In this document: positions 1-12,006 of the stretch, piece after piece
How the letters are laid out: each line of letters starts with the position of its first letter
Position numbering within the stretch: the first letter of the stretch is position 1
DNA from: a virus
Taxonomy: Duplodnaviria; Heunggongvirae; Uroviricota; Caudoviricetes
Virus record (IMG/VR): IMGVR_UViG_2609460346_000011
Coordinates: 1-12,006 of that record
Length of the DNA stretch: 12,006 bases
Direction: 5' to 3' (one strand)
Translations under genes and position numbers: made by a program
The notes under the pieces: generated by a model
What the model saw: the letters and a program-made list of their open reading frames with translations, nothing else
Told to the model about the DNA's origin: nothing
Databases searched by the model: none

Positions 1-1263
1 ATGAAACTGACTGATGTAGCTGTACGTAACGCCAAACCAGATAAGGACAACAACAAAATTAAAAAACTTCGAGACGGGAAAGGGCTGTATCTCTATGTTC
101 ACCCCAACGGCTCAAAATACTGGCGCTTTCGCAAGGTTATCAACGGTAAAGAAACGACCCGAGCTTTAGGCATTTATCCTGCCGTAACACTTGCACAGGC
201 AAGGAACGCTCGTGATGAATATCTGGCGAGCCTGGCTAAAGGCATTGACCCACTGCACACGCCAAAACCTCAAATAGTGCTTTTTGAAGACGTTGCCAGA
301 GAGTGGCACAGCCGGAAAAAGGGCTGGAGCGAATTACACGCGCAAAAAGTCTTAAAAGACCTGGAAAACCACATCTTCCCCATTCTAGGTAAAAGGCCAA
401 TTAACGAGATCACAACCATGGATCTACTGATTCCTTTACGCAAAATGGAAGATAAAGGAGTGCTTGAGACAGCATCACGTAACAAGCAGCGAATGAACGC
501 CATTATGCGCTACGCTGTACAGAATGGAATGATTAAATACAATCCAGCGCAGGAGCTAAACGGTGCAATCGAAACTAATAAAACCAAACATCGCCCTGCT
601 CTTCCCCTTGAGCGATTACCTGAATTACTTGGCAAAATAAATGATTACCACTATAAGATGAATGGACGGTTATTAACGCAATTTGCACTAAAATTAAATT
701 TATTAATTTTTATTCGCTCAAGTGAATTGCGTTTTGCTCGTTGGAATGAAATTGATTTTGATAAATCAATGTGGGTAATACCAGCAGAACGCGAAAAAAT
801 AGAAGGCGTAAAATATTCATATCGTGGAACGAAAATGGGAACCCCTCACGCCATCCCTTTACCCACTCAGGCCATGCAGCTTCTTGACGATATAAGAAAT
901 ATATCCGGTGATGAAGTGTTTATTTTCCCCGGCGACCATTACCAGATAAAACCAATGAGCGAAAACACCATTAACAAGGCATTACGCCACATGGGATACG
1001 ACACAAAAAAAGATATTTGTGGTCACGGATTCAGGGCCATGGCCTGTTCGGCGCTGACAGAGTCAGGCAGGTGGACAAGAGAAGCCGTTGAGCTTCAGAT
1101 GAGTCACAGGGAAAGAGGCAGTGTCCGGGCTGCATACGTTCACAGAGCTGAACATATGCAGGAACGCCGCCGAATGTTGCAATGGTGGGCTGATTATCTC
1201 GACACCTGCAAGACGGCATATATTGCCCCCTATGATTTTAAATGGGCTAACGAAACAGACTGA
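1..1263 (+). CDS. int: Tyrosine site-specific integrase, P4/CP4-57 (IntA-like) family, 420 aa
   Basis: Full-length ORF with TGA stop at 1261-1263. The N-terminus (LTD..VRNAKP...GKGLYLYVHPNGSKYWRFR...YPAVTLAQAR) matches the P4-type integrase N-terminal domain as I recall it. The C-terminus carries recombinase-like motifs (HGFRAM, RAAYVHRAE). The ORF starts on base 1, so the upstream attachment site and RBS are not visible. Confidence 0.9.
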   Translation: MKLTDVAVRNAKPDKDNNKIKKLRDGKGLYLYVHPNGSKYWRFRKVINGKETTRALGIYPAVTLAQARNARDEYLASLAKGIDPLHTPKPQIVLFEDVAREWHSRKKGWSELHAQKVLKDLENHIFPILGKRPINEITTMDLLIPLRKMEDKGVLETASRNKQRMNAIMRYAVQNGMIKYNPAQELNGAIETNKTKHRPALPLERLPELLGKINDYHYKMNGRLLTQFALKLNLLIFIRSSELRFARWNEIDFDKSMWVIPAEREKIEGVKYSYRGTKMGTPHAIPLPTQAMQLLDDIRNISGDEVFIFPGDHYQIKPMSENTINKALRHMGYDTKKDICGHGFRAMACSALTESGRWTREAVELQMSHRERGSVRAAYVHRAEHMQERRRMLQWWADYLDTCKTAYIAPYDFKWANETD

Positions 1264-1863
1264 ATCAACTCAACAAACTAAACTACCCCAAGCGGCTGAA
1301 TTAAACTCAAGGCGTGGACAATATGTGGACACGCCGATTTTTTTATCTTTTAAAATCAATAGAATAAGACACTACTAAAAGCACCTAGTGATTTTTTAGC
1401 CTCAAAACCAAGTATATCTATTTGATTTTTAATGTGTTTTTAATTAATGACCAGTTCTTTTGATAAAAACTAGAAAATCAAACTGTTTTATCGATATTGT
1501 TTTTTGATATGCATCACATTTTCAACTCTTTTTTTGTTTTCAGAATCCACTATTCCAGCGTTCGCAAGCATTGCATCCCCCCGGAACGGGCTTTCCTGGT
1601 GCCTGAAAGGGTAAGTCAGCAAACCTTTCTGGCACTAACTTGTTATTCTTTGTCGCTTTCTGGCGGTTTAAAGTGGCTCTAAATGTATATTTCACGCATG
1701 GAACAAATCTAACTGTCCATGTCAACCCCATCTGAAAATCGACCTGATTTACAAATCCGCTTTTCGTTGTTTATGATTTTTCTCGTCCCGCAGACGACCG
1801 CGAGATCTTACATGCTCCCACTGTGAGCTAACGTAAAGTGTTCAGCATATACAGGAGGCCAAT

Positions 1864-2085
1864 ATGTCAGCATACTCACAGACCAGCGAAAGGCGGATTC
1901 AAAAATTAATAAGACTCCCCAGAGTCATTGAAATCACAGGGAGATCAAGAGCTCGAATTTACGAAGATATAAAATCTGATATCTTCCCCAAACCAATAAA
2001 AATAGGCCCTCGTGCGGTTGCATGGGTTGAAGAAGAAATTATCGACTGGATAGAAGAAAGAAAACAACAACGTTTTCAGGCTTAA
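1864..2085 (+). CDS. alpA: AlpA-family phage transcriptional regulator / excisionase-like protein, 73 aa
   Basis: Strong SD (caggagg) 6 nt upstream of the ATG. The pattern IRLPRVIEITGRSRARIYEDI...FPKPIKIGPRAVAWVEEEIIDWIEER fits the AlpA/Vis helix-turn-helix signature (TG.SR..IY ... FPKP.K.G.R.V.W...EI..W). Confidence 0.85.
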   Translation: MSAYSQTSERRIQKLIRLPRVIEITGRSRARIYEDIKSDIFPKPIKIGPRAVAWVEEEIIDWIEERKQQRFQA

Positions 2086-2701
2086 TTATTTTCATTTTAT
2101 AGTCAGCATGGCGCGATATGCGCCTAAACACTTCATACAATAAGAAACATCACTTAACCAAAGATGCATTCATGGTTTAAAAGATGCTCTACCCTTGTTA
2201 AGGAAACCGGAGTAAACAGATATAACAAAATAAAAGAAAGTGGACTATCAGAGGGATATTTTCATCTGTACGTCACACGTAAGAAATATATTTCAAGGAG
2301 CTAAGTTTAAAATCAACATTTATTTACAGAGTATAAAATTGAGTTATTCCGGTTACATTAACCGGATTGGGTGAACTGTTATGATAAATACAAGTAATGG
2401 CGACGTGGGTATATTCTCCACGAGGCATAAACAAACAAACGCTTTAAACATCATAACCGGATGTCCGGGAATACAGCATTATCCTGCTGACTGGAGCGGG
2501 CACATTGCTACATGTGAGGGAAGGAGGCCGGGTACTGGCAGCAGAGTCAAAAAAAGAAGCTCGCTAAAGCTAGCGAGCCAACCAGTCAGTAGTACGCGAT
2601 GGATCTGACATTAAGAATAATAGGCAGAAATAATTATGGCTTTTTTACTCTTAAAAATCAATCACTCAGCGCAAGTGAGCAAAAATAATTTGCAATATTG
2701 C

Positions 2702-2731
2702 TTGACTCGCTTTTTTGTCATGGCGTATCGT
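2702..2731 (+). promoter_or_regulatory. Putative sigma70-like promoter (TTGACT, ~18 bp spacer, TATCGT) reading into the repeat region
   Basis: TTGACT at 2702-2707 and a weak -10 candidate TATCGT at 2726-2731, with AT-rich DNA upstream. Pattern match only. Confidence 0.25.
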
Positions 2732-2756
2732 TTGCCCGCACCTCATAAAGCGGGTG

Positions 2757-2941
2757 CCGGGTTTAGCAGCCTGAACAATCAAGCGGGTAGCCGCTATATT
2801 TCCGTAATGCGGTTTTTTTGTGCCCGTAATTCCACCCTACCCCGTATTATGGCGGGGCGGAATGGGGGGGCCTTTGCGCTCGCTGGTTCCTTGATTGCCA
2901 GTCTGCTAACCCTGTTACGTCCCGCCACCATGTTTAGCAGC
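2757..2941 (+). promoter_or_regulatory. Non-coding region with direct 10-mer repeats (GTTTAGCAGC at 2761-2770 and 2932-2941) and an internal partly complementary segment (2897-2914); candidate RNA-RNA regulatory module
   Basis: The exact 10-mer occurs twice 171 bp apart. The reverse complement of 2897-2914 (CAGGGTTAGCAGACTGGC) aligns with the first repeat context (CCGGGTTTAGCAGCCTG) at about 14 of 16 positions with one bulge. The 173-aa ORF called across this region translates to low-complexity sequence that does not look protein-like. Confidence 0.35.
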
Positions 2942-2983
2942 GTGCTGGCGAGACTCCGTAAACTTAATCAAGGAGCCGCCAAA

Positions 2984-3157
2984 ATGGCTATATCAACACG
3001 CCCTGATTTTATCTGGCGCTTTATGCAGTGCCACGGTAAAAATATTCGCCTTCATACCGTTACCGCTGCCAGTGAGCGCGAAGCGCGCGCCATGCTTCCG
3101 GCATCCCGTCTGGTCTTTGTTGCCCGTATCCGTGTCCGGGAGGCGTGCCATGTTTAA
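2984..3157 (+). CDS. Hypothetical small protein, 57 aa
   Basis: Internal ATG of the 2636..3157 ORF, with SD AGGAG at 2971-2975 eight nt upstream. Its stop overlaps the next gene's start. No family recognised. Confidence 0.45.
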   Translation: MAISTRPDFIWRFMQCHGKNIRLHTVTAASEREARAMLPASRLVFVARIRVREACHV

Positions 3158-3332
3158 GCTCCTTATCACCCTGATTAACTACCAGAACGGCGACGTTCGC
3201 CAGATGATTCATTCCTGGGAATATCCGACTTATGACGATGCATGGCGTGATGCCTGTCGTATGGCATATTCCCGCAATGACAAACAGGGGCGATTAACCC
3301 ACAAATGCGCAGTAAAAATCATGGAGGGGTAA
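3150..3332 (+). CDS. Hypothetical small protein, 60 aa
   Basis: ATG at 3150 preceded by GGGAGG (3135-3140) and overlapping the stop of the upstream ORF (translational coupling). The longer 3072 start lacks an RBS and overlaps the upstream gene. No family recognised. Confidence 0.4.
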   Translation: MFKLLITLINYQNGDVRQMIHSWEYPTYDDAWRDACRMAYSRNDKQGRLTHKCAVKIMEG

Positions 3333-3334
3333 CG

Positions 3335-3523
3335 ATGTACGAGATTCATATTAAATTGCGTAATGTGGTAACAGGAGAGGAAGAAAACTTCTACACGATA
3401 CGTAAATATAAATCAAAAGGAAAAGCGGCAAGGGACGCTATCAGGTATACGGAAGAAATTGCGCCGAAATATCAATTGCCAGAAGAAGAATTCACAGCAT
3501 CAGTGGTAAAGGTGAAGAAATGA
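3335..3523 (+). CDS. Hypothetical small protein, 62 aa (Lys/Glu-rich)
   Basis: ATG at 3335 with SD GGAGGGG five nt upstream; stop TGA overlaps the next start (ATGA at 3520-3523). No family recognised. Confidence 0.45.
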   Translation: MYEIHIKLRNVVTGEEENFYTIRKYKSKGKAARDAIRYTEEIAPKYQLPEEEFTASVVKVKK

Positions 3524-3738
3524 AAAGCCGTTCAATATCCCGTAAAAATAATGGCAGTGGTGAAAAACGTTTCTTTGTGTTGGGTTATGCCGTTAATAAA
3601 CGTGGGTTAACCAAACATGCACATGCAACGGTATACGGAACAGGACCGGGCGAAGCCATACGCCGCGCAGCCGAAGGGCTGGAAGAGCTGGGAATGACAC
3701 ATTTCAGGGCATTGAAGGTTACGCAGCTTTCCGCCTGA
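3520..3738 (+). CDS. Hypothetical small protein, 72 aa
   Basis: Start overlaps the upstream stop (ATGA) and a purine-rich stretch lies upstream. No family recognised. By position it could correspond to the small ORFs preceding the primase gene in P4-like elements. Confidence 0.45.
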   Translation: MKSRSISRKNNGSGEKRFFVLGYAVNKRGLTKHAHATVYGTGPGEAIRRAAEGLEELGMTHFRALKVTQLSA

Positions 3739-3805
3739 TTCCTTAATTACCAACTGATAACTGAATTAAATTTATATTTCGATCTTAACGGGTCGGGGAG
3801 TTTTT

Positions 3806-4105
3806 ATGTCTAAACGTCAGAATAGCGAAATTTTTTTAGATAGAGAATATGCTGGCTTTTTTACAGAAAGTGCAAAGGAAGATCTCACAGATGTGATTAA
3901 TCTCGTCAGTTTAATATCTGTGGTCTTTGGCGATAAAAATGGTAGAGCATCAGCAGAAATTATAAATGAAGAAATTGTATCTCTGTCTAACATTATTTAT
4001 AGGGAATTACAATCAATAAAATCTGGTATGCATTCATCCGGCGGAATTTTTTCATGGCATAGCGCCGAAACCGCCGGGATTGCCAAAGCAATAAGCAACG
4101 AGTAA
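3806..4105 (+). CDS. Hypothetical protein, 99 aa, encoded in a markedly AT-rich segment
   Basis: SD GGGGAG six nt upstream of the ATG. Codon usage and GC content are clearly lower than in the flanking genes. A perfect hairpin follows immediately downstream. Confidence 0.5.
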   Translation: MSKRQNSEIFLDREYAGFFTESAKEDLTDVINLVSLISVVFGDKNGRASAEIINEEIVSLSNIIYRELQSIKSGMHSSGGIFSWHSAETAGIAKAISNE

Positions 4106-4115
4106 TTAATAAAAA

Positions 4116-4140
4116 CCCCACTGCAAAAGGTGCAGTGGGG
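4116..4140 (+). terminator. Perfect 10-bp stem hairpin (CCCCACTGCA / AAAGG / TGCAGTGGGG), intrinsic terminator or RBS-sequestering structure
   Basis: Perfect inverted repeat seen directly, preceded by an A-tract and followed by a U-rich stretch. The right arm overlaps the purine-rich SD (GGTGGAG, 4138-4144) of the primase gene. Confidence 0.5.
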
Positions 4141-4153
4141 TGGAGTTTTATAT

Positions 4154-6823
4154 ATGAAATCTGACATCAGAAAAGAGATTATTAACCGTCTTATCCGTGA
4201 TTACAACTTCAAAGAAGAAAATAACTACCTCCGATATGGTGTTTGTCCACAATGTGGAAAGAAAGAGCTGTTTACCAGCCTTGAGAAGCCGTACATCGTA
4301 CACTGCGGGCGTGAAAATAAATGCGGTACAGACCTGCTAACCAAAGAACTTTACCCGGATGTGTTTTCATCATGGTCAGATCGCTATATCAGCACGAAAG
4401 ACGAGCCATATGCAGCGGCGGCAGCTTATCTTCAGGAGGCGCGCAATATTGCTGTGGAGCCACTGAAAGGGGTATTCACTCAGGAGCGATACCAGGACAA
4501 GGAAAGCGGCGAACAGGCCGCTACCGTGCGTTTTACACTGGCTGACGGCGTGTGGTGGGAGCGCATCATAGACCGACCGGAACGCTTCGAACGGAAGGCG
4601 AATTTTTCCGGCAGCTACAAGGGGCTGTGGTGGGCTTATCCGGGAACAGATTTAAGCAGGGCCAAGGAAATCTGGATTTGTGAGGGTGTCTTTGATGCAA
4701 TCAGCCTTAACCAGAATGGCATTGCGGCCGTTTCTGTCATGTCTGCCGTGAATTATCCTGATGAGGCGCTGGAAGAACTGGCAAAGCAGTGCGGAGATAA
4801 TCCCCGTCCGGTTATTGTGTGGGCGCTGGATAACGGGCGTGCAGGTGAGCGTTACGCGAAAAAACATGCAGAACGCAGCGCCGAAGACGGCTGGAGAACG
4901 GCGGCGGCGTTACCGGGTAAAAACAGCAATAAACGCGACTGGAATGATTTACACACCGCCGGAAAGCTGCGTAGCCATGATGTAAAAAGATACCGTTATT
5001 ACGGTGATTTATTACTGGCGAAATCCCCAAGAGATAAGGCGCTGATAATATTTTCCTTTTGTGAGCGGAAGGAATTTCATTTTACCTTTGATAACCGTGT
5101 TTTCTGGTTCAAACTGGACATTGAGCGCTATATGAAGGCTGTTGAGCGTGCCAAGAATGAGCGAAATGTTGATGAGGATGAAGCGCGCAAAATTGCACTT
5201 AAGGAATCCGGTACTGTAAAAGAAATCGCAAACTGTAACCCAGCGCCGCTTTATTACATTCGAAATAATGATACGGATGAAGCCTGGTATTACTTCCGTG
5301 TTACGTTCCCGGATGGTGCTACGGTGAAAAACACCTTTACATCAGGACAATTAACATCCGCATCTGAATTTAAAAAACGCCTGTTGCATGTGGCAAAAGG
5401 CGGTATTTATACCGGAACGACTGCGCACCTTGATGCATTAATAAAAAATGACCTTCCCGCAATAAAAAATGTTATCGGTCAGGATTTTATCGGATACAAC
5501 AAAGAGATTGGCGCGTGGCTGTTTAATGATGTCGCGGTTTGTAATGGTAAAACCTACGAAATCAATGAAGAGGATTATTTTGAAATTGATGGCATAAACG
5601 CAAAACCATTGAATAAAAAACCAATATTGCAGATTAACTATAAAAAACCGGATAAATTTACAATATCCTGGGTGGAAGATCTCTGGCTGGCGTTTGGTGA
5701 AAAGGGAATTATTACCCTGGCCTTCTGGCTGGGTTCGTTGTTCAGCGAACAAATCAGGCAGAAAAACACGTCTTACCCTTTTCTTGAGATTACCGGAGAG
5801 CCTGGAACGGGTAAAACAACGCTGATTGATTTTTGTTGGCGTTTGTGTGGCCGTGACAACTATGAAGGTGTTGATCCAACCAAAGGATCGGAATCAGGCT
5901 GGAAGCGAACTTTTGGACAGGTCGCCGGATTACCTGTTGTTCTGATTGAAGCAGACCGGGGAGACAATGCGCAAAAAAGAGGCGCGTTTGACTTCGATAA
6001 CCTGAAAAGCCTCTATAACGGTGGTGGTATTGGGGTACGTGGCGTTAAAACCAATGATAACGCCACATATGACCCCGTTTTTAAGGGGGCTGTCGTGATT
6101 GCGCAAAATGCCACGGTAAACGCCTCGTCGGCAATTATTGAGCGCCTGGTACGTGTATACACCGATAAAAAACGCCACTCACCAGATAGCCGACTGGCAG
6201 CAAAACGGCTGGAGCTTTACCCCGTTGAGCAGGTATCAGGTTTTATCCATCGGGCAGTAAGTCAGGAACGGACGATTATGGAGACGTTTATGGCACTCTC
6301 GGATTCTGAGACAACCCGCCTTTATAGTTGCGAAAATATTCGTCATCAGCGTATTGCCAAAAATCACGCGCAACTTATCGCGCTGGTCAGGGCGCTGAAA
6401 TGCGTTATTGATATCCCGGATGAATGGCTTGATGCCACATGTCTGGAACTGGAGCGAATGGCAGAGGAACAGGCTAAAGCGGTAATGGATGACTTGCCGG
6501 AAGTGATGGCGTTCTGGGAGACGTTCGACTATCTGGACGGCATCACAGCATACGGCGTAAATCATTTTGGCAAGGGACGGCAGAATGAGTTTGCCATCAG
6601 TATCCCGCAACTTGAGCAGGTTGCCGCCGTTCACCACGTGAAGATCCAAACCAATCCCGAAATGATAAAGCTTCTCAAGGCTGGCCGTTCTCGATCGCTG
6701 ATTGGATACAAGCCCGTCCGTAGCGAGGTATCCAGACAGGCGAACGCCGGGAGGGGAATAGCCGAGGCCAGAGAGAAGGAGGTATTGAAATGCTGGATAT
6801 TTAGTAACAAGGAGGGGGCTTAA
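4154..6823 (+). CDS. DNA primase/helicase-type replication initiator (zinc ribbon + TOPRIM/EGxxD primase + P-loop NTPase), P4 alpha-like in architecture, 889 aa
   Basis: Start taken at the ATG at 4154 (MKSDIRK) rather than the upstream in-frame ATG inside the hairpin. N-terminal Cys cluster CPQCGKK...HCGRENKCG; EGVFDA primase-type motif followed by an acidic DNGRAGE segment; Walker A GEPGTGKTT near residue 550. Confidence 0.85.
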   Translation: MKSDIRKEIINRLIRDYNFKEENNYLRYGVCPQCGKKELFTSLEKPYIVHCGRENKCGTDLLTKELYPDVFSSWSDRYISTKDEPYAAAAAYLQEARNIAVEPLKGVFTQERYQDKESGEQAATVRFTLADGVWWERIIDRPERFERKANFSGSYKGLWWAYPGTDLSRAKEIWICEGVFDAISLNQNGIAAVSVMSAVNYPDEALEELAKQCGDNPRPVIVWALDNGRAGERYAKKHAERSAEDGWRTAAALPGKNSNKRDWNDLHTAGKLRSHDVKRYRYYGDLLLAKSPRDKALIIFSFCERKEFHFTFDNRVFWFKLDIERYMKAVERAKNERNVDEDEARKIALKESGTVKEIANCNPAPLYYIRNNDTDEAWYYFRVTFPDGATVKNTFTSGQLTSASEFKKRLLHVAKGGIYTGTTAHLDALIKNDLPAIKNVIGQDFIGYNKEIGAWLFNDVAVCNGKTYEINEEDYFEIDGINAKPLNKKPILQINYKKPDKFTISWVEDLWLAFGEKGIITLAFWLGSLFSEQIRQKNTSYPFLEITGEPGTGKTTLIDFCWRLCGRDNYEGVDPTKGSESGWKRTFGQVAGLPVVLIEADRGDNAQKRGAFDFDNLKSLYNGGGIGVRGVKTNDNATYDPVFKGAVVIAQNATVNASSAIIERLVRVYTDKKRHSPDSRLAAKRLELYPVEQVSGFIHRAVSQERTIMETFMALSDSETTRLYSCENIRHQRIAKNHAQLIALVRALKCVIDIPDEWLDATCLELERMAEEQAKAVMDDLPEVMAFWETFDYLDGITAYGVNHFGKGRQNEFAISIPQLEQVAAVHHVKIQTNPEMIKLLKAGRSRSLIGYKPVRSEVSRQANAGRGIAEAREKEVLKCWIFSNKEGA

Positions 6824-6825
6824 GT

Positions 6826-7827
6826 ATGTCGATCAGAAAGATGGATGATGGGCGATGGCTGCTCGATATCAGGCCCCAAGGGGCGTACGGCAAACGGATA
6901 CGTAAAATTTTTGTCAGGAAAGGGAGTGCGGAGGTCTTCAAAGAACATATTTTACAGAATTTCCATAACAACCCATGGCTGGCTAAACCTGCTGATCGAC
7001 GGAGATTATCAGAGCTGCTTGATATATGGTGGATGCTTGATGGCCGTAACCAGGCTTACGGTGATACCTACAGGATTCGGATGGAGAAAGTGATTCGTGA
7101 AATGGGAGATCCGCGTGCCAGCCAGATGACGCAAAAATTTATGCTTGAGTATCGGTCAGAGAAATTACAGGCCGGCTTAATGCCATCCAGCATTAATCGT
7201 GACTTGTGCGTTCTGTCTACCATGTTCACGGTGCTGATTGAAGCTGAGGTCTTTCACAACCCGAACCCTGTACGCGGTATACGCAAGCTAAAAATTCAGA
7301 ATACAGAGATGGCCTTTCTTTCTGATGATGAGATTGAGCGGCTTCTTGAGCGACTGGAGGGGGATGCGCGTCGTGTTGCCATTCTGTGTCTTTCTACTGG
7401 TGCCCGATGGAGTGAAGCATCGGAACTACGTGGAGAGCACATCATTGGCAACCGGGTGACGTTCTTTAACACCAAAAACGGAAAATCCCGTTCGGTTCCT
7501 GTGGCTGATTCGGTCGTGCCGCTGATTAAGACCCACCGGACAGGGGTGTTGTATCAGGTTGATTATCTGAAGTTCCGGGAGATCCTTCAGGAGGTGAAGC
7601 CGGATTTACCGAAGGGGCAGGCTACGCATGTCATGCGTCATACATTTGCCACACACTTTATGATGAATGGCGGAAATATTGTTACGTTACAACGAATCCT
7701 GGGGCATGCCACGATTCAACAGACAATGACGTACGCGCATTTTTCTCCCGACTATCTGGCGGATGCCATGAGGTTTAACCCGATAGCTAACATGGCATTC
7801 ACTGAACAAGAAGAGCCAGCAGAGTAA
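6826..7827 (+). CDS. int: Tyrosine integrase, P2 Int-like family, 333 aa
   Basis: Near end-to-end resemblance to the P2 integrase as I recall it (MSIRKMDDGRWLLDIRPQG..GKRIRK...AILCLSTGARWSEA...GQATHVMRHTFATHFMMNGGNIVTLQRILGH...TYAHF). Catalytic Arg, HxxR box and Tyr are present. The ATG lies 2 nt after the primase stop, with the SD (AAGGAGGGGG) inside the primase 3' end. Confidence 0.85.
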   Translation: MSIRKMDDGRWLLDIRPQGAYGKRIRKIFVRKGSAEVFKEHILQNFHNNPWLAKPADRRRLSELLDIWWMLDGRNQAYGDTYRIRMEKVIREMGDPRASQMTQKFMLEYRSEKLQAGLMPSSINRDLCVLSTMFTVLIEAEVFHNPNPVRGIRKLKIQNTEMAFLSDDEIERLLERLEGDARRVAILCLSTGARWSEASELRGEHIIGNRVTFFNTKNGKSRSVPVADSVVPLIKTHRTGVLYQVDYLKFREILQEVKPDLPKGQATHVMRHTFATHFMMNGGNIVTLQRILGHATIQQTMTYAHFSPDYLADAMRFNPIANMAFTEQEEPAE

Positions 7828-7857
7828 CCCGCAGAACGCTACATTCACAGCAAAAGA

Positions 7858-7882
7858 GGTCAGTTTTCCACTGGCCTTTTTT
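7858..7882 (+). terminator. Rho-independent terminator after the P2-type integrase
   Basis: Stem GGUCAG/CUGGCC (one G-U pair) with a 7-nt loop, followed by a run of six T. Confidence 0.6.
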
Positions 7883-8073
7883 GTTGGCCAAAGCCAACGG
7901 TAACAGCAATGCGATGGAGGCCATATTGCAGTGGTGTCGCCATCAATTTTTTTTGCTCTCCCCCCTGGTTATCAGAAAGAGTCAAATAATGGCGAGATAC
8001 ATTTCAATAACAGAGAGTTAATGATAGAGATACAGAATAAGTGAGTTTGATTAACATTTTAAAGGGTCGCGCT

Positions 8074-8397
8074 AAAATCCGGGGGGGGGTGCGGAAACGG
8101 GTTACAAAGGTTACAAACAGAAAAATATATTATATATCAATACATTATAATACATTTAAAAGGTTACAAACGGGTTACAACAGGGTTACATGTAACCTTT
8201 ATGTAGTGGTTACTGTTGGTTACAGGTTAAATTTATAATTAATTGATAATTAATCTGTTTTTGAGAGCTGCAACCTCGTGTAACCTTCTGTAACCTCAAA
8301 AAGGTTACAAGAAATATGTTTTAAAATCATATGACTATAGTGTGTTTTAGGGGGTTGTAACCTTTGTAACCCGTTTCCGCACCCCCTACCGGATTTT
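8074..8397. repeat. Iteron cluster: about 12 copies of GGTTACA/TGTAACC in both orientations around AT-rich DNA, bounded by 43-bp inverted repeats (8074-8116 and 8355-8397, 41/43 identity); putative replication origin
   Basis: Counted directly: forward copies at 8100, 8109, 8162, 8173, 8184, 8219, 8303; reverse copies at 8191, 8279, 8289, 8356, 8365. Includes the palindrome GGTTACATGTAACC at 8184-8197. The interior is AT-rich and there is no convincing coding potential. Confidence 0.6.
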
Positions 8398-8614
8398 GAG
8401 GCAGAGCCCCAAAACAACTGGCCTGACCTCTAACAAAAATGCAACATTAATCATTGATTTTTTGGGGGCTGTCAGTCACGGGGAGTTGCCCTGTTGTTTG
8501 GCAGAAAAATGAAGTATGTACATGCGCGGCGGGGATGGTAAAAAACGTAATACACGCGGCGCAGTTGCCATAAAAAATCTCTCAAAAGCACTCTTTTTGA
8601 CGCTATTGTTCATC

Positions 8615-8644
8615 TGCACAAAAGTGCACAAATTTGCACAATTT
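8615..8644. repeat. Three direct TGCACAA(A/T) repeats phased at exactly 10 bp (8615, 8625, 8635), with a fourth copy at 8707
   Basis: Direct reading of TGCACAAAAG TGCACAAATT TGCACAATTT. Helical-turn phasing suggests a protein binding array or bent DNA. Confidence 0.4.
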
Positions 8645-9004
8645 TTTAGAGTAACTTTTTGCCCATCCGGCCCAGTACTGGCGCGCCCGGAGGGCGATTT
8701 CGTGCGTGCACAAAAAACGGTGAGTTTTTCGCGCGCAGGTGACGGGGGAACAGCACGCGTTTCAGGGGGTAAATTACATTTTCGCTAAAGGCTGCGGGAA
8801 TGCCCCGACCGGGTTAGTTTTATCGCCAGCCAGAGCCGTTCTTACGGCAAGAGAGAACTGATACGGGGAATGTGACGAGTGAGCATGGGAACGGCGCGCC
8901 CGTGCGTAATACGCGGCGACTGCTGCGGGTTTATTTGATACAGCCAGAGGGGGGCGGCAGAAGATATAATAGGTTAAATTTCACACCAGTAAGAGGAGCG
9001 TGAT

Positions 9005-9187
9005 ATGTCTTTCCCTTGCCCGGCCTGTGGCGCTTCAGCCCGCACCCGTGGTCGTTCGTTGGAAGAACACGAACAAAACATCTACAGAACGTATTACCAG
9101 TGCAATAATATTGAGTGTGGGGCTTGTTTTTGTACGCTTGAGTCGTTTGTACGCATTACTAAGCGCAGGAAGTCGAAAACTTCATAG
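9005..9187 (+). CDS. ogr: Ogr/Delta-family zinc-finger late-gene transcriptional activator, 60 aa
   Basis: SD AAGAGGAG upstream. CPAC...(x)...YQCNNIECGACFCTLESF matches the Ogr/Delta C-x2-C / C-x4-C zinc-finger signature and the FxTxES motif of P2 Ogr as recalled. Confidence 0.85.
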   Translation: MSFPCPACGASARTRGRSLEEHEQNIYRTYYQCNNIECGACFCTLESFVRITKRRKSKTS

Positions 9188-9237
9188 TGATTTGTATAAC
9201 ACAGCCAGCGAGTGTGACCGGCTGCGTTATTTCTGTA

Positions 9238-9471
9238 TTACGTCGTGTGGTTCTGGTCATTTGCCCAGGCCCACACATCCCCCGCTACATTGCGCCCGTT
9301 GCAGTCTTCTTCCTGCGTTTCCCCGGCCTTAATTCCCTGACTGATAAACATTCTGACGCACTGGGAGTAGTTCATCTCTCTGTCCTGACATATCTGATTT
9401 ATTTTATGGTCGATTTCGTGCGGGATACGAATACAGCGTAATACGCATCGCATTTTCTTTTGTTTTTTCAT
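9238..9471 (-). CDS. Small hypothetical protein (77 aa) with a ribbon-helix-helix-like N-terminus; possible DNA-binding regulator
   Basis: Minus-strand ATG at 9471 preceded by AGGGAGG at seven nt spacing. The N-terminus MKKQKKMRCVLRCIRIPHEIDHKINQICQDREMNYSQCVRMFI has a strand-helix-helix pattern reminiscent of Arc/CopG-type proteins. The overlapping + strand ORFs look like junk. Family assignment is tentative. Confidence 0.4.
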   Translation of the reverse strand: MKKQKKMRCVLRCIRIPHEIDHKINQICQDREMNYSQCVRMFISQGIKAGETQEEDCNGRNVAGDVWAWANDQNHTT

Positions 9472-9626
9472 AGTGTTGCCTCCCTGATTGTTTATGCCGG
9501 GATTTAACACCCGCGATACAAGAAAGCGTAATACAACAGTATTGTGAGCGTATTACGAGAACAAAATCGGCTGGAATGTATTACGCAATATGGAAAAAAT
9601 CGGCGTAAGTAAAAAAATGTATTACA
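9436..9626. promoter_or_regulatory. Divergent intergenic/promoter region with five copies of GCGTAATAC/GTATTACGC in both orientations
   Basis: Motif at 9436, 9526, 9549 (inverted), 9577 (inverted) and 9618 (partial). Related longer copies (CGTAATACRCGCGG) occur at about 8549, 8899 and inside the capsid gene at about 11177. Confidence 0.35.
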
Positions 9627-9636
9627 GGAGCAAATA

Positions 9637-10347
9637 ATGGATATAACTCAGGCAAGCGCCGAACATCAGGTATGTAAAGCACAGTTTGATACAGCCATGG
9701 CAAAACTCAGTGAACAGGAATCATTAATCACCAATCTGGAAGCAACTATCGAACAGACGAAAGGGGAGCTGGAATCTCTCGATCGTGACTGGCAGAACTC
9801 AATCCTGTCTGCGCTGGGCGTAAAAACGGAAGCCTCCGCGAAATTATCCATTCAGGCGGGTGTGGCGCGAGAAAATCTTGAGCGTCTGCGGGTGCTGCAT
9901 GATGAGGCGCGCATCAGGCTACTGGAGTGTCGTTATAACGCGGCAGAGGCTGGTTGTGCTTACGAAAGCATTGATAATAAGTTGCGGGCAGAGATATTTG
10001 CAAAAGCACTTCCCGAACTGATTAACGAGCTGACCCCTGCTCTGTTATTGATTCGTGGTTTATGTGAGCTGCTTGGCCAGCCGCTGTATAACGCAGAAAA
10101 GAAAATATGCGAAACACTGAAAGCGACAGATACTGCTGAAAGTGTCGGGATGATTCGCGGCCGGATTAACGATACCGAAAGCGACACCTCCAGCCCGCTG
10201 CGTTATTGCCCGGAGAAACTCCCGGATTCGGTAAGCCGCGCAATCAGGAACGCCCCTTCACCTGTACAATGGAGCGCGGCGCGACAGAATCCAGAAAAAA
10301 TGCGCGACCTTGCGGAGGGCAGAGAACTCTGCCGGGGGTGGCAGTAA
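9637..10347 (+). CDS. Coiled-coil alpha-helical protein, 236 aa; putative capsid scaffold or size-determination-like (Sid/Psu/GpO-like) protein
   Basis: SD AGGAG seven nt upstream. The sequence is rich in Ala/Leu/Glu heptad-like segments. It sits immediately upstream of, and is translationally coupled to, the capsid gene (TAATG overlap at 10345-10349). The coding call is reasonably safe; the function is inferred from position and composition only. Confidence 0.5.
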   Translation: MDITQASAEHQVCKAQFDTAMAKLSEQESLITNLEATIEQTKGELESLDRDWQNSILSALGVKTEASAKLSIQAGVARENLERLRVLHDEARIRLLECRYNAAEAGCAYESIDNKLRAEIFAKALPELINELTPALLLIRGLCELLGQPLYNAEKKICETLKATDTAESVGMIRGRINDTESDTSSPLRYCPEKLPDSVSRAIRNAPSPVQWSAARQNPEKMRDLAEGRELCRGWQ

Positions 10348-11618
10348 TGGGCGGTCTGAATACTCCACATTTGCACGGCGCTGATATAGTGAGCCGACTC
10401 AGGGGATTAATGTCCCGGAATCGCCTGAAAGCAAACACAGCAAGCATAAGCGATGAGACGCGTCGCGCGCTGGACAATGAATATCAAAAACTGGAGCGTG
10501 AGCTTGAGCTTCACACCCTGCATACTGCAAGCGGTGGGGGTAATAACGACGGCATTGAGCGTTATAATTGCACTGCTGATTCTGTTGTATCACAACGAAA
10601 TCAACAGGCTCAGATGGTTTTCAATTGCGCTATCGAGTCGATAACCGGAAAGCATCCGAAGGATTTGCACTTTTCTGGTGACACTGCGCGCTATTCGTCA
10701 GAAGTTGAACCCGTTCCCCGCCAGAGTGCAACGCTTGCCAGTGGATGGCAGGCAAATTTCCTTGCTGAAATAACTCCCGTGCCTGTTACGGATATATCAG
10801 GTCGGGTTGTGCTGGTAGACGCTTCGGGGCCGTTGGCACGTACATCGCCACCTCACGAGCGCCGTTCGCCACTACAGGCGCATTCACTGGTTTCAAGGGG
10901 CTACCGCTGCGAGCAGGTTAATTTTGATTTTGCGCTGAACTACGACAATGTTGATGCTCACACATCCGCAAACGGTCTTGAAGGAAGCGCACGGGCTGCT
11001 TTTGAACGCCGGAAATGGCTGGATTTGATTCAGATTGGTTTTAACGGTACGCACTATGCCGATACATCAGATCCCGGAACATATCCGGGGCGTGATGATT
11101 GCGGCGTGGGCTGGTTGCAGAAGTTTCGAAATGAAGCGGCGGGAAGGGTTATCAGCGGCCTTTCTGTTTCATCACCGAAAAGTAATACACGCGGTACACA
11201 CCATACGATAGATGCGCTCGTTCTGGATGCCTGGCAATCCATGATTGATGAACAGTGGCAGGAAGGCATTGTGGCCGTATGCAGTCACAATACGCTGGTC
11301 CGTAAGCAATGGCCTTTGATAAACCGTCTTGATCCATCGCAGATGAATCAGGAAATTTTGCTTAACGAGGAAATCATTAAAAATCCCGTTCTGGGGAATC
11401 TCCCGGCTGTGACCGTTCCATTTTTCCCGGACAATGCTGTATTGATCACACCTCTTGCCAATCTGTGTCTGTACTGGCAGCGTGGTTCCGTTCGTGGCCT
11501 GGTAAAAAACGAGCCTCAGTATAATCGCCTCGCGTTCTATGAGTCCTGTAACCTTGACTGGGTGGTGGGGCAATATGAGGCAGGGTGCTTACTGGATGGG
11601 ATTGACTGGAAAGAATAG
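10347..11618 (+). CDS. Major capsid protein, P2 GpN-like family, 424 aa from the ATG at 10347 (alternative internal start at 10614)
   Basis: Extended motif agreement with P2 GpN as I recall it: CEQVNFDF, GFNGTHYADTSD, GVGWLQKFRNEAAGRV, IDALVLDA, GNLPAVTVPFFPDNAVLITPLANL, YESCNLDWVVGQYEAGCLLDGI. SD-like GGGGGTGG lies upstream of the 10347 ATG. About 89 residues precede the region that aligns with the GpN N-terminus. Confidence 0.8.
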   Translation: MGGLNTPHLHGADIVSRLRGLMSRNRLKANTASISDETRRALDNEYQKLERELELHTLHTASGGGNNDGIERYNCTADSVVSQRNQQAQMVFNCAIESITGKHPKDLHFSGDTARYSSEVEPVPRQSATLASGWQANFLAEITPVPVTDISGRVVLVDASGPLARTSPPHERRSPLQAHSLVSRGYRCEQVNFDFALNYDNVDAHTSANGLEGSARAAFERRKWLDLIQIGFNGTHYADTSDPGTYPGRDDCGVGWLQKFRNEAAGRVISGLSVSSPKSNTRGTHHTIDALVLDAWQSMIDEQWQEGIVAVCSHNTLVRKQWPLINRLDPSQMNQEILLNEEIIKNPVLGNLPAVTVPFFPDNAVLITPLANLCLYWQRGSVRGLVKNEPQYNRLAFYESCNLDWVVGQYEAGCLLDGIDWKE

Positions 11619-11640
11619 CAAGGAAATTTCCGGTAACGTT

Positions 11641-11658
11641 GAGGGCTTCTCAGCCCTC
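11641..11658. terminator. Hairpin GAGGGC/TTCTCA/GCCCTC between convergent genes; probable bidirectional terminator
   Basis: Perfect 6-bp GC-rich stem followed by CTTTTACTT on the + strand. It lies between the capsid stop (11616-11618) and the toxin stop (11662-11664). Confidence 0.5.
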
Positions 11659-11661
11659 CTT

Positions 11662-12006
11662 TTACTTAAGCAGATGCTCTCCACCAATCAGGGTTATGAC
11701 TCTTTCAAGCACATCATTAAATACCCCATCTTCTGCCTCTGTGATTAAGCGCGCTTTCCGCTGACGCCAGTCAAGGGTTTGAATGAGTGTGGTTGCTACC
11801 ACGCTGGGGGCGTCCAGATTTGTTACCGGAACTTCTGTGGGAGCATTTCGTATGCTCGTACTTATGGAGCAGCATATGACAAGCCCGGTGAGTCGGTTAT
11901 ATTGCTCATGGGATAGTATGAGTGCCGGGCGATACTTTCCGATCTCTTTTCCTTTCTGCGGCTCAAAATCCAGCCAGCAAATATCACCACGCTTAGGTAC
12001 AAACAT
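11662..12006 (-). CDS. Type II toxin, MazF/PemK/Kid-family endoribonuclease, 114 aa
   Basis: RGDICWLDFEPQKGKEIGKYRPALILS...LTGLVICCSISTS...VATTLIQTLDWRQRKARL follows the MazF/PemK pattern (RGDI..V.FDP..G.E..G.RPALVLS). The start codon sits on the last three bases of the window, so the upstream partner gene and promoter are not visible. Confidence 0.8.
   Translation of the reverse strand: MFVPKRGDICWLDFEPQKGKEIGKYRPALILSHEQYNRLTGLVICCSISTSIRNAPTEVPVTNLDAPSVVATTLIQTLDWRQRKARLITEAEDGVFNDVLERVITLIGGEHLLK

Follow-up and report, generated by a model that had tools for sequence, protein, structure and literature searches.

Phage P4 is described as lacking capsid genes (PMC9122126), and the core set of P4-like satellites, in which Psu, Delta and Sid are listed, includes no capsid protein (PMC10085698). 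Can such a satellite encode a shell protein of its own, and if so, how would it use it? The question is raised by a stretch of 12,006 nucleotides (nt), hereafter the window, which comprises positions 1 to 12,006 of the Caudoviricetes record IMGVR_UViG_2609460346_000011 in IMG/VR. At positions 9637-11618 of the window, two adjacent genes encode a protein of 236 amino acids (aa) and a 423-aa relative of the P2 capsid protein GpN with an N-terminal extension. Our comparisons indicate that in this segment a P4-like satellite has its late operon for capsid morphogenesis, that the satellite encodes its own predicted P2-family (GpN) major capsid protein, and that the 236-aa protein is, by profile homology, a distant relative of P4 Sid, the external size-determining scaffold.

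The 423-aa product matches the Pfam family PF05125 (Phage_cap_P2) with 241.8 bits against a cut-off of 27, covering profile positions 38-327 of 327, and the major head protein family PHROG 70 at E=7.7e-76. It is 34% identical to P2 GpN, in a BLASTP alignment that begins at its residue 86, corresponding to GpN residue 3, and 35% identical to the GpN of the P88-like phage 569R5. A Foldseek search with its AlphaFold (AF2) model (predicted local distance difference test, pLDDT, of 81) recovered gpN of the P4 procapsid (7jw1_B, E=1e-29) and the phiRSA1 capsid protein (7oz4, E=3e-26), with other HK97 folds at 1e-10 or weaker. The ratio of nonsynonymous to synonymous substitution rates (dN/dS), from pairs with dS of about 0.7-0.95, is 0.13 for the capsid body and 0.16 for the N-arm. 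The gene does not lie between O and M as in a phage head operon; it follows the Sid-like gene and precedes a toxin-antitoxin pair. A reading made earlier from the sequence alone (the sequence-only reading) had proposed both the match to GpN and a satellite-like element with its own P2-family capsid, and both proposals hold.

The features of the operon, in window coordinates, are these:

9005-9187, plus strand: Ogr/Delta-type zinc-finger late-gene activator, 60 aa (Pfam PF04606, 43.4 bits)
9238-9471, minus strand: small antisense open reading frame (ORF), 77 aa as annotated in RefSeq
9637-10347, plus strand: Sid-like gene, 236 aa (AGGAG 7 nt upstream of the ATG)
10255-10269, plus strand: PSPVQ codons (residues 207-211), the best-conserved motif (PSPxQ) of the Sid-like family
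10334-10349, plus strand: coupling junction, the purine run GGGGGTGG followed by TAATG, where the sid-like stop meets the capsid start (read from the sequence)
10347-11618, plus strand: capsid gene, predicted GpN-family major capsid protein with N-terminal extension, 423 aa (Pfam PF05125)
10377-10529, plus strand: helix-loop-helix of the extension, residues 11-61 (AF2, conserved motif, dN/dS)
10530-10580, plus strand: disordered Gly/Asn-rich linker of the extension, residues 62-78 (pLDDT about 41)
10581-10646, plus strand: helix 79-100, equivalent of the gpN N-terminal alpha0 and the start of the N-arm (AF2, BLASTP)
11157-11168, plus strand: GLSV codons, residues 271-274, in the equivalent of the gpN sir loop (clade alignment)
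11641-11658, plus strand: terminator-like hairpin GAGGGCTTCTCAGCCCTC followed by a T-rich tail, between the capsid gene and the convergent pemK

The island to which the window belongs lies in the E. coli chromosome, in strain TOE17 (NZ_CP069093) between tRNA-Arg and dsdC; an imperfect 21-bp repeat of the 3' end of the tRNA marks its boundaries, and its length is 12,669 bp. The TOE17 copy is 99.9% identical at the nucleotide level, and its capsid protein has the accession WP_032230077.1. Pfam and RefSeq assign to it a P4-type integrase, AlpA, an Icd-like gene, a large toprim primase, a second integrase-like gene and the Ogr/Delta zinc-finger protein, with a PemK/MazE toxin-antitoxin pair at its far end. 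From the core set that SatelliteFinder applies to P4-like satellites, integrase, AlpA, Toprim and Ogr_Delta are present as Pfam matches, together with the Sid-like gene. Psu and Phage_ASH had no match in any window ORF tested; Phage_ASH or Derepression genes are present in some related islands. By this gene content the element is a P4-like satellite of E. coli, about 12.7 kb in length and located at tRNA-Arg. The ORF list, Pfam and the RefSeq annotation show no portal, protease, head-tail connector or terminase of its own in the 12.7-kb island, and RefSeq annotates no O, M, P or Q gene there. Among 5,426 complete E. coli genomes, 57 contain the segment 8900-11700, with 95-100% identity.

Where the capsid protein begins decides how the two genes relate to each other. 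The sequence-only reading had the capsid ORF overlapping the upstream gene in another frame at 10206-10347. The capsid frame is indeed open from 10170, and its first TTG, at 10206, is the start in the mechanical ORF list; the overlap is an artefact of taking the first TTG of an open frame. Because the start is ATG 10347, which is the RefSeq start and corresponds to a conserved Met in relatives, there is no biological overlap of 142 nt, and the ATG shares a single base with the upstream TAA (TAATG). In ten related loci from other genera, eight of them non-identical, the distance from the upstream stop to the homologous N-terminal Met is -8 to +19 nt; in the relatives checked this Met is preceded by a stretch that is rich in purines and often resembles a Shine-Dalgarno sequence, and in most related loci the frame upstream of it is open for a few codons only. 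The sid-like and capsid genes are thus, as judged from their arrangement, tightly coupled, probably in translation as well. A programmed frameshift or fusion joining them, which the sequence-only reading had raised in the form of a frameshifted scaffold gene, was rejected: the spacing and frames vary, in-frame stops intervene, and the genes are separate in all intact relatives.

Exactly 89 codons separate ATG 10347 from the internal ATG 10614 and include the ASGGGNNDG segment, just as the sequence-only reading had counted. In the AF2 model a disordered tip (residues 1-10) leads into two helices (11-29 and 36-61, pLDDT 85-92), a second disordered stretch (62-78), the alpha0-like helix 79-100 and then the HK97 fold. 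The helical motif F..R[IL]K.L..RN...SPE.R..LE.EN.KLE.EL is kept across genera, at 40-50% identity between genera, and in informative pairs (dS about 0.7-0.95) dN/dS is 0.36-0.40 for the helix-loop-helix and about 0.95 for the linker. The linker is hypervariable in length and sequence among relatives, yet its frame is never broken, and the extension as a whole, which spans 53 to 152 residues, is open in frame in all 13 intact full-length loci, across genera. Since the motif and the start are conserved, the frame is open and the helical part has a dN/dS of 0.36-0.40, we conclude on these comparative grounds that the extension, about 85 residues here, is translated and under purifying selection; the elongated capsid protein envisaged by the sequence-only reading is accordingly upheld. 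Ser/Ala/Pro-rich linker repeats were seen in some E. coli variants (P0009, P0011 and P0012; L008 10001-11425), in which the extension reaches 106-152 residues.

The protein encoded upstream (ORF 9637-10347, plus strand) is helical, as had been noted: its AF2 model (pLDDT 93.8) consists almost entirely of helix, with long helices at 3-58 and 65-146 and short ones at the C terminus. No Pfam or PHROG match was obtained. Word-indexed searches returned almost only near-identical E. coli sequences, and the family was gathered from the neighbours of capsid homologues and by an exhaustive representative search, which showed it to be small (24 representatives among 1.84 billion proteins). In hhalign, a profile of 22 family members matched P4 Sid at E=2.9e-5 and 74% probability (reversed Sid scores 9.9), and relaxed thresholds gave a collinear alignment of 208 columns that covers both from end to end (1-254 against 1-244); pairwise BLASTP of the 236-aa protein against Sid gave E=0.51. 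Foldseek placed Sid (7jw1_E) as the best of 350,542 PDB chains, yet at E=0.15 and a template modelling (TM) score of 0.47, without recovering Psu; against BFVD the model matched generic coiled coils only. A relationship to Psu was rejected (E 0.16-0.34), as was the GpO-like internal scaffold that the sequence-only reading had taken the gene to encode: no signal was found against GpO, and the match is to P4 Sid instead. The function of a Sid-type cage is predicted from this homology.

Sequence motifs in the two proteins point to the same interface. In the Sid-like family P207, S208 and Q211 of PSPxQ are nearly invariant, and the motif aligns with Sid 219-224 (TPAQRK), within the helix-alpha6 segment that contacts the sir loop of gpN (PMC7552001). 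This loop, to which Sid binds, is formed by gpN residues 183-224 (PMC7552001); its equivalent in the E. coli satellite protein is 7 residues shorter and contains GLSV, aligned with GpN 186-189, in which G271, S273 and V274 are invariant in the clade and L272 nearly so. The alignment of PSPxQ with the gpN-contacting part of Sid, together with the clade-specific GLSV and the shortened sir loop, suggests that the Sid-like protein and the capsid protein are a co-evolved pair.

How widespread is the arrangement? A search covering 5.8 billion proteins delimited a discrete capsid clade of about 20 clusters of 393-497 aa, scoring 268-932 bits, whereas phage GpNs reach no more than 205 bits. Its hosts in that search are E. 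coli, Salmonella, Klebsiella, Erwinia, Pectobacterium and Symbiopectobacterium, and species-representative genomes added Enterobacter, Izhakiella, Kluyvera, Apirhabdus and Ca. Erwinia dacicola. The contigs of the seven clade proteins examined share the gene order ogr/delta, small antisense ORF, gene of about 240 aa, capsid, except that ogr/delta is inverted in L011 and that no antisense gene is called in L007. In all related loci the ogr/delta gene adjoins the sid-like/capsid pair, upstream on the same strand in most and on the opposite strand in L011, and in most of them a minus-strand ORF of 59-107 aa occupies the equivalent position between them; in the window the distance from ogr/delta to the sid-like gene is about 450 bp. 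The operon stands at the right-hand (attR-proximal) end of P4-like islands wherever the contig is long enough (L013 is cut just upstream of ogr/delta), and these islands encode a DUF927/toprim-type primase (toprim was not detected in L011); an integrase is present as well in contigs that extend to it. By these criteria of score and context the clade is distinct and belongs to the Enterobacterales, its sampled members lying inside P4-like islands.

Two irregular forms were encountered in the same searches. The Sid-like gene appears frameshifted or degraded in the Kluyvera, Ca. Erwinia dacicola and Apirhabdus genomes. A 534-aa protein, P0004, joins Toprim domains to the C-terminal part of the satellite capsid protein and probably reflects an error of assembly or gene calling, or else an island that has undergone a deletion.

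The exact P2/P4 cos 19-mer is absent from the window, also when up to 3 mismatches are allowed, and blastn of the whole of P4 against the window matched the integrase only. Upstream of ogr/delta, the following were found:

8614-8780, no strand assigned: cos-like packaging region, 81% identical to a non-coding stretch upstream of the portal gene Q in P88-like phages
8738-8756, plus strand: predicted 19-nt cohesive end GGTGACGGGGGAACAGCAC, matching P4/P2 (GGCGAGGCGGGGAAAGCAC) at 14 of 19 positions and 569R5 at 18 of 19

Counterparts of the 8614-8780 region occur in vB_EcoM-569R5, P88, 500465-2 and other P88-like (Xuanwuvirus-type) Peduoviridae, and the region is collinear with the cos region of P4. 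Each of the seven related satellite loci tested contains the block, as does L133, and wherever the stretch includes ogr/delta the block lies upstream of that gene by a few hundred bp; it stands at the cut start of L013 and adjoins Q in phage L157. At least one extra P88-like terminase and cos locus was counted in 39 of 56 satellite-bearing E. coli genomes versus 1,075 of 5,370 others (Fisher p=2e-15), and the co-occurrence persists at p=5e-11 after up to five second satellite copies are discounted. Given the near-identity of the cos site to that of P88-like Peduoviridae and the co-occurrence with such prophages, the helper is probably a P88-like phage, not P2. The 12,669-bp island fits the capacity of a small P4-type capsid, about 12 kb (PMC9122126). 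The P88-type cos block itself is present in about 21% of complete E. coli genomes.

We tentatively favor, at somewhat short of an even chance, the explanation that a small shell is built of the satellite's own capsid protein, that the N-terminal hairpin serves as a built-in scaffold and the Sid-like protein as a cage, and that a P88-like helper provides the rest. Once a P88-like Peduoviridae phage is induced in the cell or infects it, the Ogr/Delta activator would switch the operon on, and the satellite capsid protein would form a shell of small T number, made wholly of satellite protein, with guidance from the Sid-like protein that the satellite also encodes. The helper would contribute portal, protease, terminase, head completion, tail and lysis functions, and its terminase would cut and package the island at the P88-type cos. 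The extension may act as the delta domain does in HK97 and in Ccm of the satellite SaPIbov5, as a scaffold built into the shell protein and tethered by a flexible linker, and it may be removed by the helper GpO protease near a conserved V-E-P site. This functional analogy is independent of any descent from GpO. A P4-like lineage that is semi-autonomous for its shell, forming the small capsid entirely out of a GpN-type protein of its own with a built-in scaffold possibly derived from the GpO C-terminal domain and a co-evolved Sid cage, and taking just portal, protease, terminase and tail from P88-like helpers, is a possibility that we hold more loosely.

The main rival is a mixed shell, in which the satellite protein would co-assemble with helper GpN at particular positions, for example in pentamers, and together with the Sid-like cage would force a small shell. 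There is a direct precedent: Ccm of SaPIbov5, a satellite-encoded capsid-protein homologue whose 87-residue delta domain is cleaved off, fills the pentamers of T=4 shells in which the protein of the helper phi12 forms the hexamers (PMC8569155). Moreover, a satellite without portal and protease must mesh with helper head proteins in any case, and the satellite and helper capsid proteins are of one fold family. However, the invariant motif specific to the clade maps to the Sid-binding loop of hexamers in P4, which suggests that the satellite protein occupies the hexamers to which its own Sid-like partner binds, and 35% identity to helper GpN is low, though compatible, for contacts in mixed capsomers; on balance we consider a mixed shell unlikely. 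Less likely again is pure interference, with the capsid homologue as a decoy that poisons helper head assembly and so defends the host population, outside any transducing particle. Satellites commonly interfere with helper assembly, defense genes cluster in P4-like elements (PMC9122126), and a toxin-antitoxin pair adjoins this operon. Against a decoy, the helper-type cos, the Sid homologue, the late activator and a size fitting a small capsid all point to packaging, and the whole HK97 fold, assembly interfaces included, is under the strong purifying selection given above (dN/dS 0.13), so that we regard this explanation as improbable.

Two further alternatives concern the extension itself. Translation from ATG 10614, which the sequence-only reading had named among the findings that would count against it, would yield a GpN-length protein of 334 aa, near the 357 of GpN, and would make the upstream 267 nt either an untranslated stretch or a remnant in decay; database cluster P0002 (334 aa) is called in this way, and a natural subclade lacks the extension. 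The Met at this position (Met-90) is not conserved in relatives, however, whereas the upstream Met stands behind a purine-rich stretch, the frame between them stays open in all 13 intact loci, the motif is retained between genera, dN/dS is 0.36-0.40, and the helices are predicted with confidence. Such an internal start is very improbable and, like the decoy, less likely than either the satellite-built shell or the mixed one.

The other alternative is one of origin: a GpO protein that had lost its protease domain and stop codon would have become fused to GpN, with its C-terminal scaffolding domain (residues 195-284; PMC7552001) as the present extension. The sequence-only reading had suggested both a likeness to the GpO C terminus and a natural scaffold-capsid fusion. 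Here hhalign repeatedly pairs the start of the extension (F..R[IV]K.L[IF].R[NK]) with GpO 180-197, just before the scaffolding domain, in one recurrent match of 18 columns (score 16.7-18.5, E 0.002-0.04, probability 1-13%), above column shuffles (7.4 +/- 1.45) and reversed and decoy controls (10-13). The GpO profiles comprised 12 and 19 sequences from annotated phage records and phage loci; homologues from viral contigs were all identical to P2, hence useless for a profile, and were replaced. The Gly-rich end of the extension is also collinear with the ...ATGGGGD tail of GpO, and in the P88-related phage contig L157 (9344-11227) O and N share one reading frame with just a stop codon and 9 nt between them, where a single small change could fuse them. 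Against such descent, BLASTP of the extension with GpO is not significant (collinear residues 27-67 and GpO 236-278, E=2.2), Pfam PF05929 (Phage_GPO) does not match, and the best alignment moves to another segment, 220-257, when one P88-like GpO is used alone. The extension profile found only generic or designed helical hairpins and chance matches among PDB sequences and PHROGs, and its helical part is about half as long as the GpO C-terminal domain. The resemblance is marginal and not confirmed, and descent from GpO, with it the fusion as an origin, is possible but unlikely. Two leads were dropped along the way. In phage loci L156-L158 and L164, a tblastn match that extended to residue 12 had hinted at a likeness to the GpO tail, and direct comparison with L157 was not significant; 409-aa GpNs of Yersinia phages, considered as N-extended phage proteins, have their extra length at the C terminus.

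Several observations count against a shell built from satellite protein alone. At about 35% identity to the putative helper GpN, the satellite protein must nevertheless work with the portal, protease and head-completion proteins of the helper. The Sid assignment rests on moderate statistics (hhalign 74%, Foldseek E=0.15, TM 0.47). The co-occurrence statistic ignores strain relatedness and takes the second locus from counts, and 17 of the 56 carriers lack a P88-like locus. Decay into a pseudogene, a prospect that the sequence-only reading had raised for related strains, is seen in copies from some symbiont genomes (L112-L114), next to the 13 loci that are intact and full-length. The in-frame junction, whose conservation it had proposed to check, is kept in relatives as to start and frame, and the hairpin is absent from a subclade (L111, P0016 and P0018) whose proteins start at MNKTTGMPQPVM. 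Because this subclade lacks the helix-loop-helix, the extension is not indispensable; L111 (2248-3330), the only hairpin-less locus examined, retains the Sid-like gene upstream. Finally, the proposal is built from sequences and structural models. The hairpin-less subclade is of Pectobacterium/Symbiopectobacterium type.

Candidate control elements surround the operon. The antisense ORF at 9238-9471 has a weak CopG-like match (E=0.04, under the cut-off) and possibly encodes a ribbon-helix-helix regulator. Ahead of the sid-like gene, at 9527-9625, an inverted repeat CGTAATAC-N15-GTATTACG and three copies of GTATTAC may be operator sites. The late-promoter dyad TGT-N12-ACA has no exact match anywhere in the window.

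Elsewhere in the island, a second tyrosine-recombinase gene (Int_N and Phage_integrase; 6826-7827) begins 3 nt after the primase stop, and the same pairing recurs in related islands L006, L007, L008 and L011. Between alpA and the primase, at 2636-4105, lie several small ORFs on one strand, one of them Icd-like according to RefSeq; these have no Pfam match, and no Ash/epsilon-type derepressor was detected in the island. At 8040-8400, dense GGTTACA/TGTAACC repeats in both orientations, flanked by the inverted repeat CGGGGGGGGTGCGGAAACGGGTTACAAAGGTTACA ... TGTAACCTTTGTAACCCGTTTCCGCACCCCC, are by analogy with P4 ori/crr probably the replication origin of the satellite, with iterons for the primase. 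The PemK/MazF toxin and MazE/AbrB antitoxin genes occupy the attR-proximal end (11662-12006, minus strand, and beyond; L001 16763-17355). At or near this end, related islands carry MazEF again in Salmonella, and GmrSD and a type I restriction-modification system in Erwinia; between primase and ogr/delta they carry HicAB in Salmonella and DUF4238 in one Klebsiella. Both places look like variable spots for cargo or defense genes.

We found no description in the searchable literature of a P4-like element with a GpN homologue, nor of a satellite of P88-like phages. An own capsid gene in a P4-type satellite points to an undescribed route to the small capsid. P4 is the textbook case of a satellite without structural genes that reshapes the capsid protein of its helper from outside, and a shell protein of its own beside a Sid-type cage would change that picture of hijacking. 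A private capsid protein and a private Sid would remove the easiest escape of the helper, mutations in the gpN sir loop that block Sid, which would make this a testable case of escalation in an arms race. If semi-autonomy is true, the lineage would represent an intermediate step in evolution between classical P4 and the phage-inducible chromosomal islands that form capsids (cf-PICIs). The extension would be a natural delta-domain-like scaffold in a family of capsid proteins for which a separate scaffold-protease is the norm, and would inform how scaffolding functions move between proteins. A two-gene module that sets a small capsid would also be of interest for engineered P4-based delivery particles.

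Compared with P4 and its Sid/gpN procapsid (PDB 7JW1), the element has the same backbone of integrase, AlpA, primase and Ogr/Delta, a cos copied from the helper, a genome of about 12 kb, a helical Sid homologue of about 240 aa with a gpN-contacting C-terminal motif, and a shell protein of the GpN fold. Unlike P4, which has no capsid gene and uses the gpN of its helper, it encodes its own; the order is delta, sid-like, capsid, without Psu, instead of sid, delta, psu; and its cos points to P88-like helpers, not to P2. The C-terminal domain of P2 GpO (195-284) resembles the extension in being helical, in its terminal Gly-rich tail and in a short common motif at the start, and is a functional analogue of the role proposed here, but GpO stands as a protein by itself, with a protease domain at its N terminus, and the sequence evidence for homology to the extension is marginal. 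Ccm of SaPIbov5 is the nearest precedent: it too is an HK97-fold homologue of the helper capsid protein, with an N-terminal helical extension of about 85 residues, no satellite protease and a helper-type cos. It belongs to an unrelated lineage in a Gram-positive host, however, has no external scaffold, and exploits an HK97-like helper (phi12) whose own capsid protein has a delta domain, whereas here the GpNs of the helper family lack one and the scaffold-protease GpO is separate. The delta domain of HK97 gp5 is likewise an N-terminal helical domain followed by a flexible segment and the N-arm of an HK97-fold protein, and the satellite has no separate internal scaffold gene; no sequence similarity to gp5 was detected, and the extension is shorter (about 50 structured residues), a simple hairpin, with cleavage proposed only. 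The cf-PICIs, finally, are likewise satellites with a major capsid gene of their own and small capsids, but their head module is complete (capsid, portal, protease, connectors and terminase) and they need only the tails of the helper, whereas the P4-like satellite described here contributes a shell protein and a predicted external scaffold.

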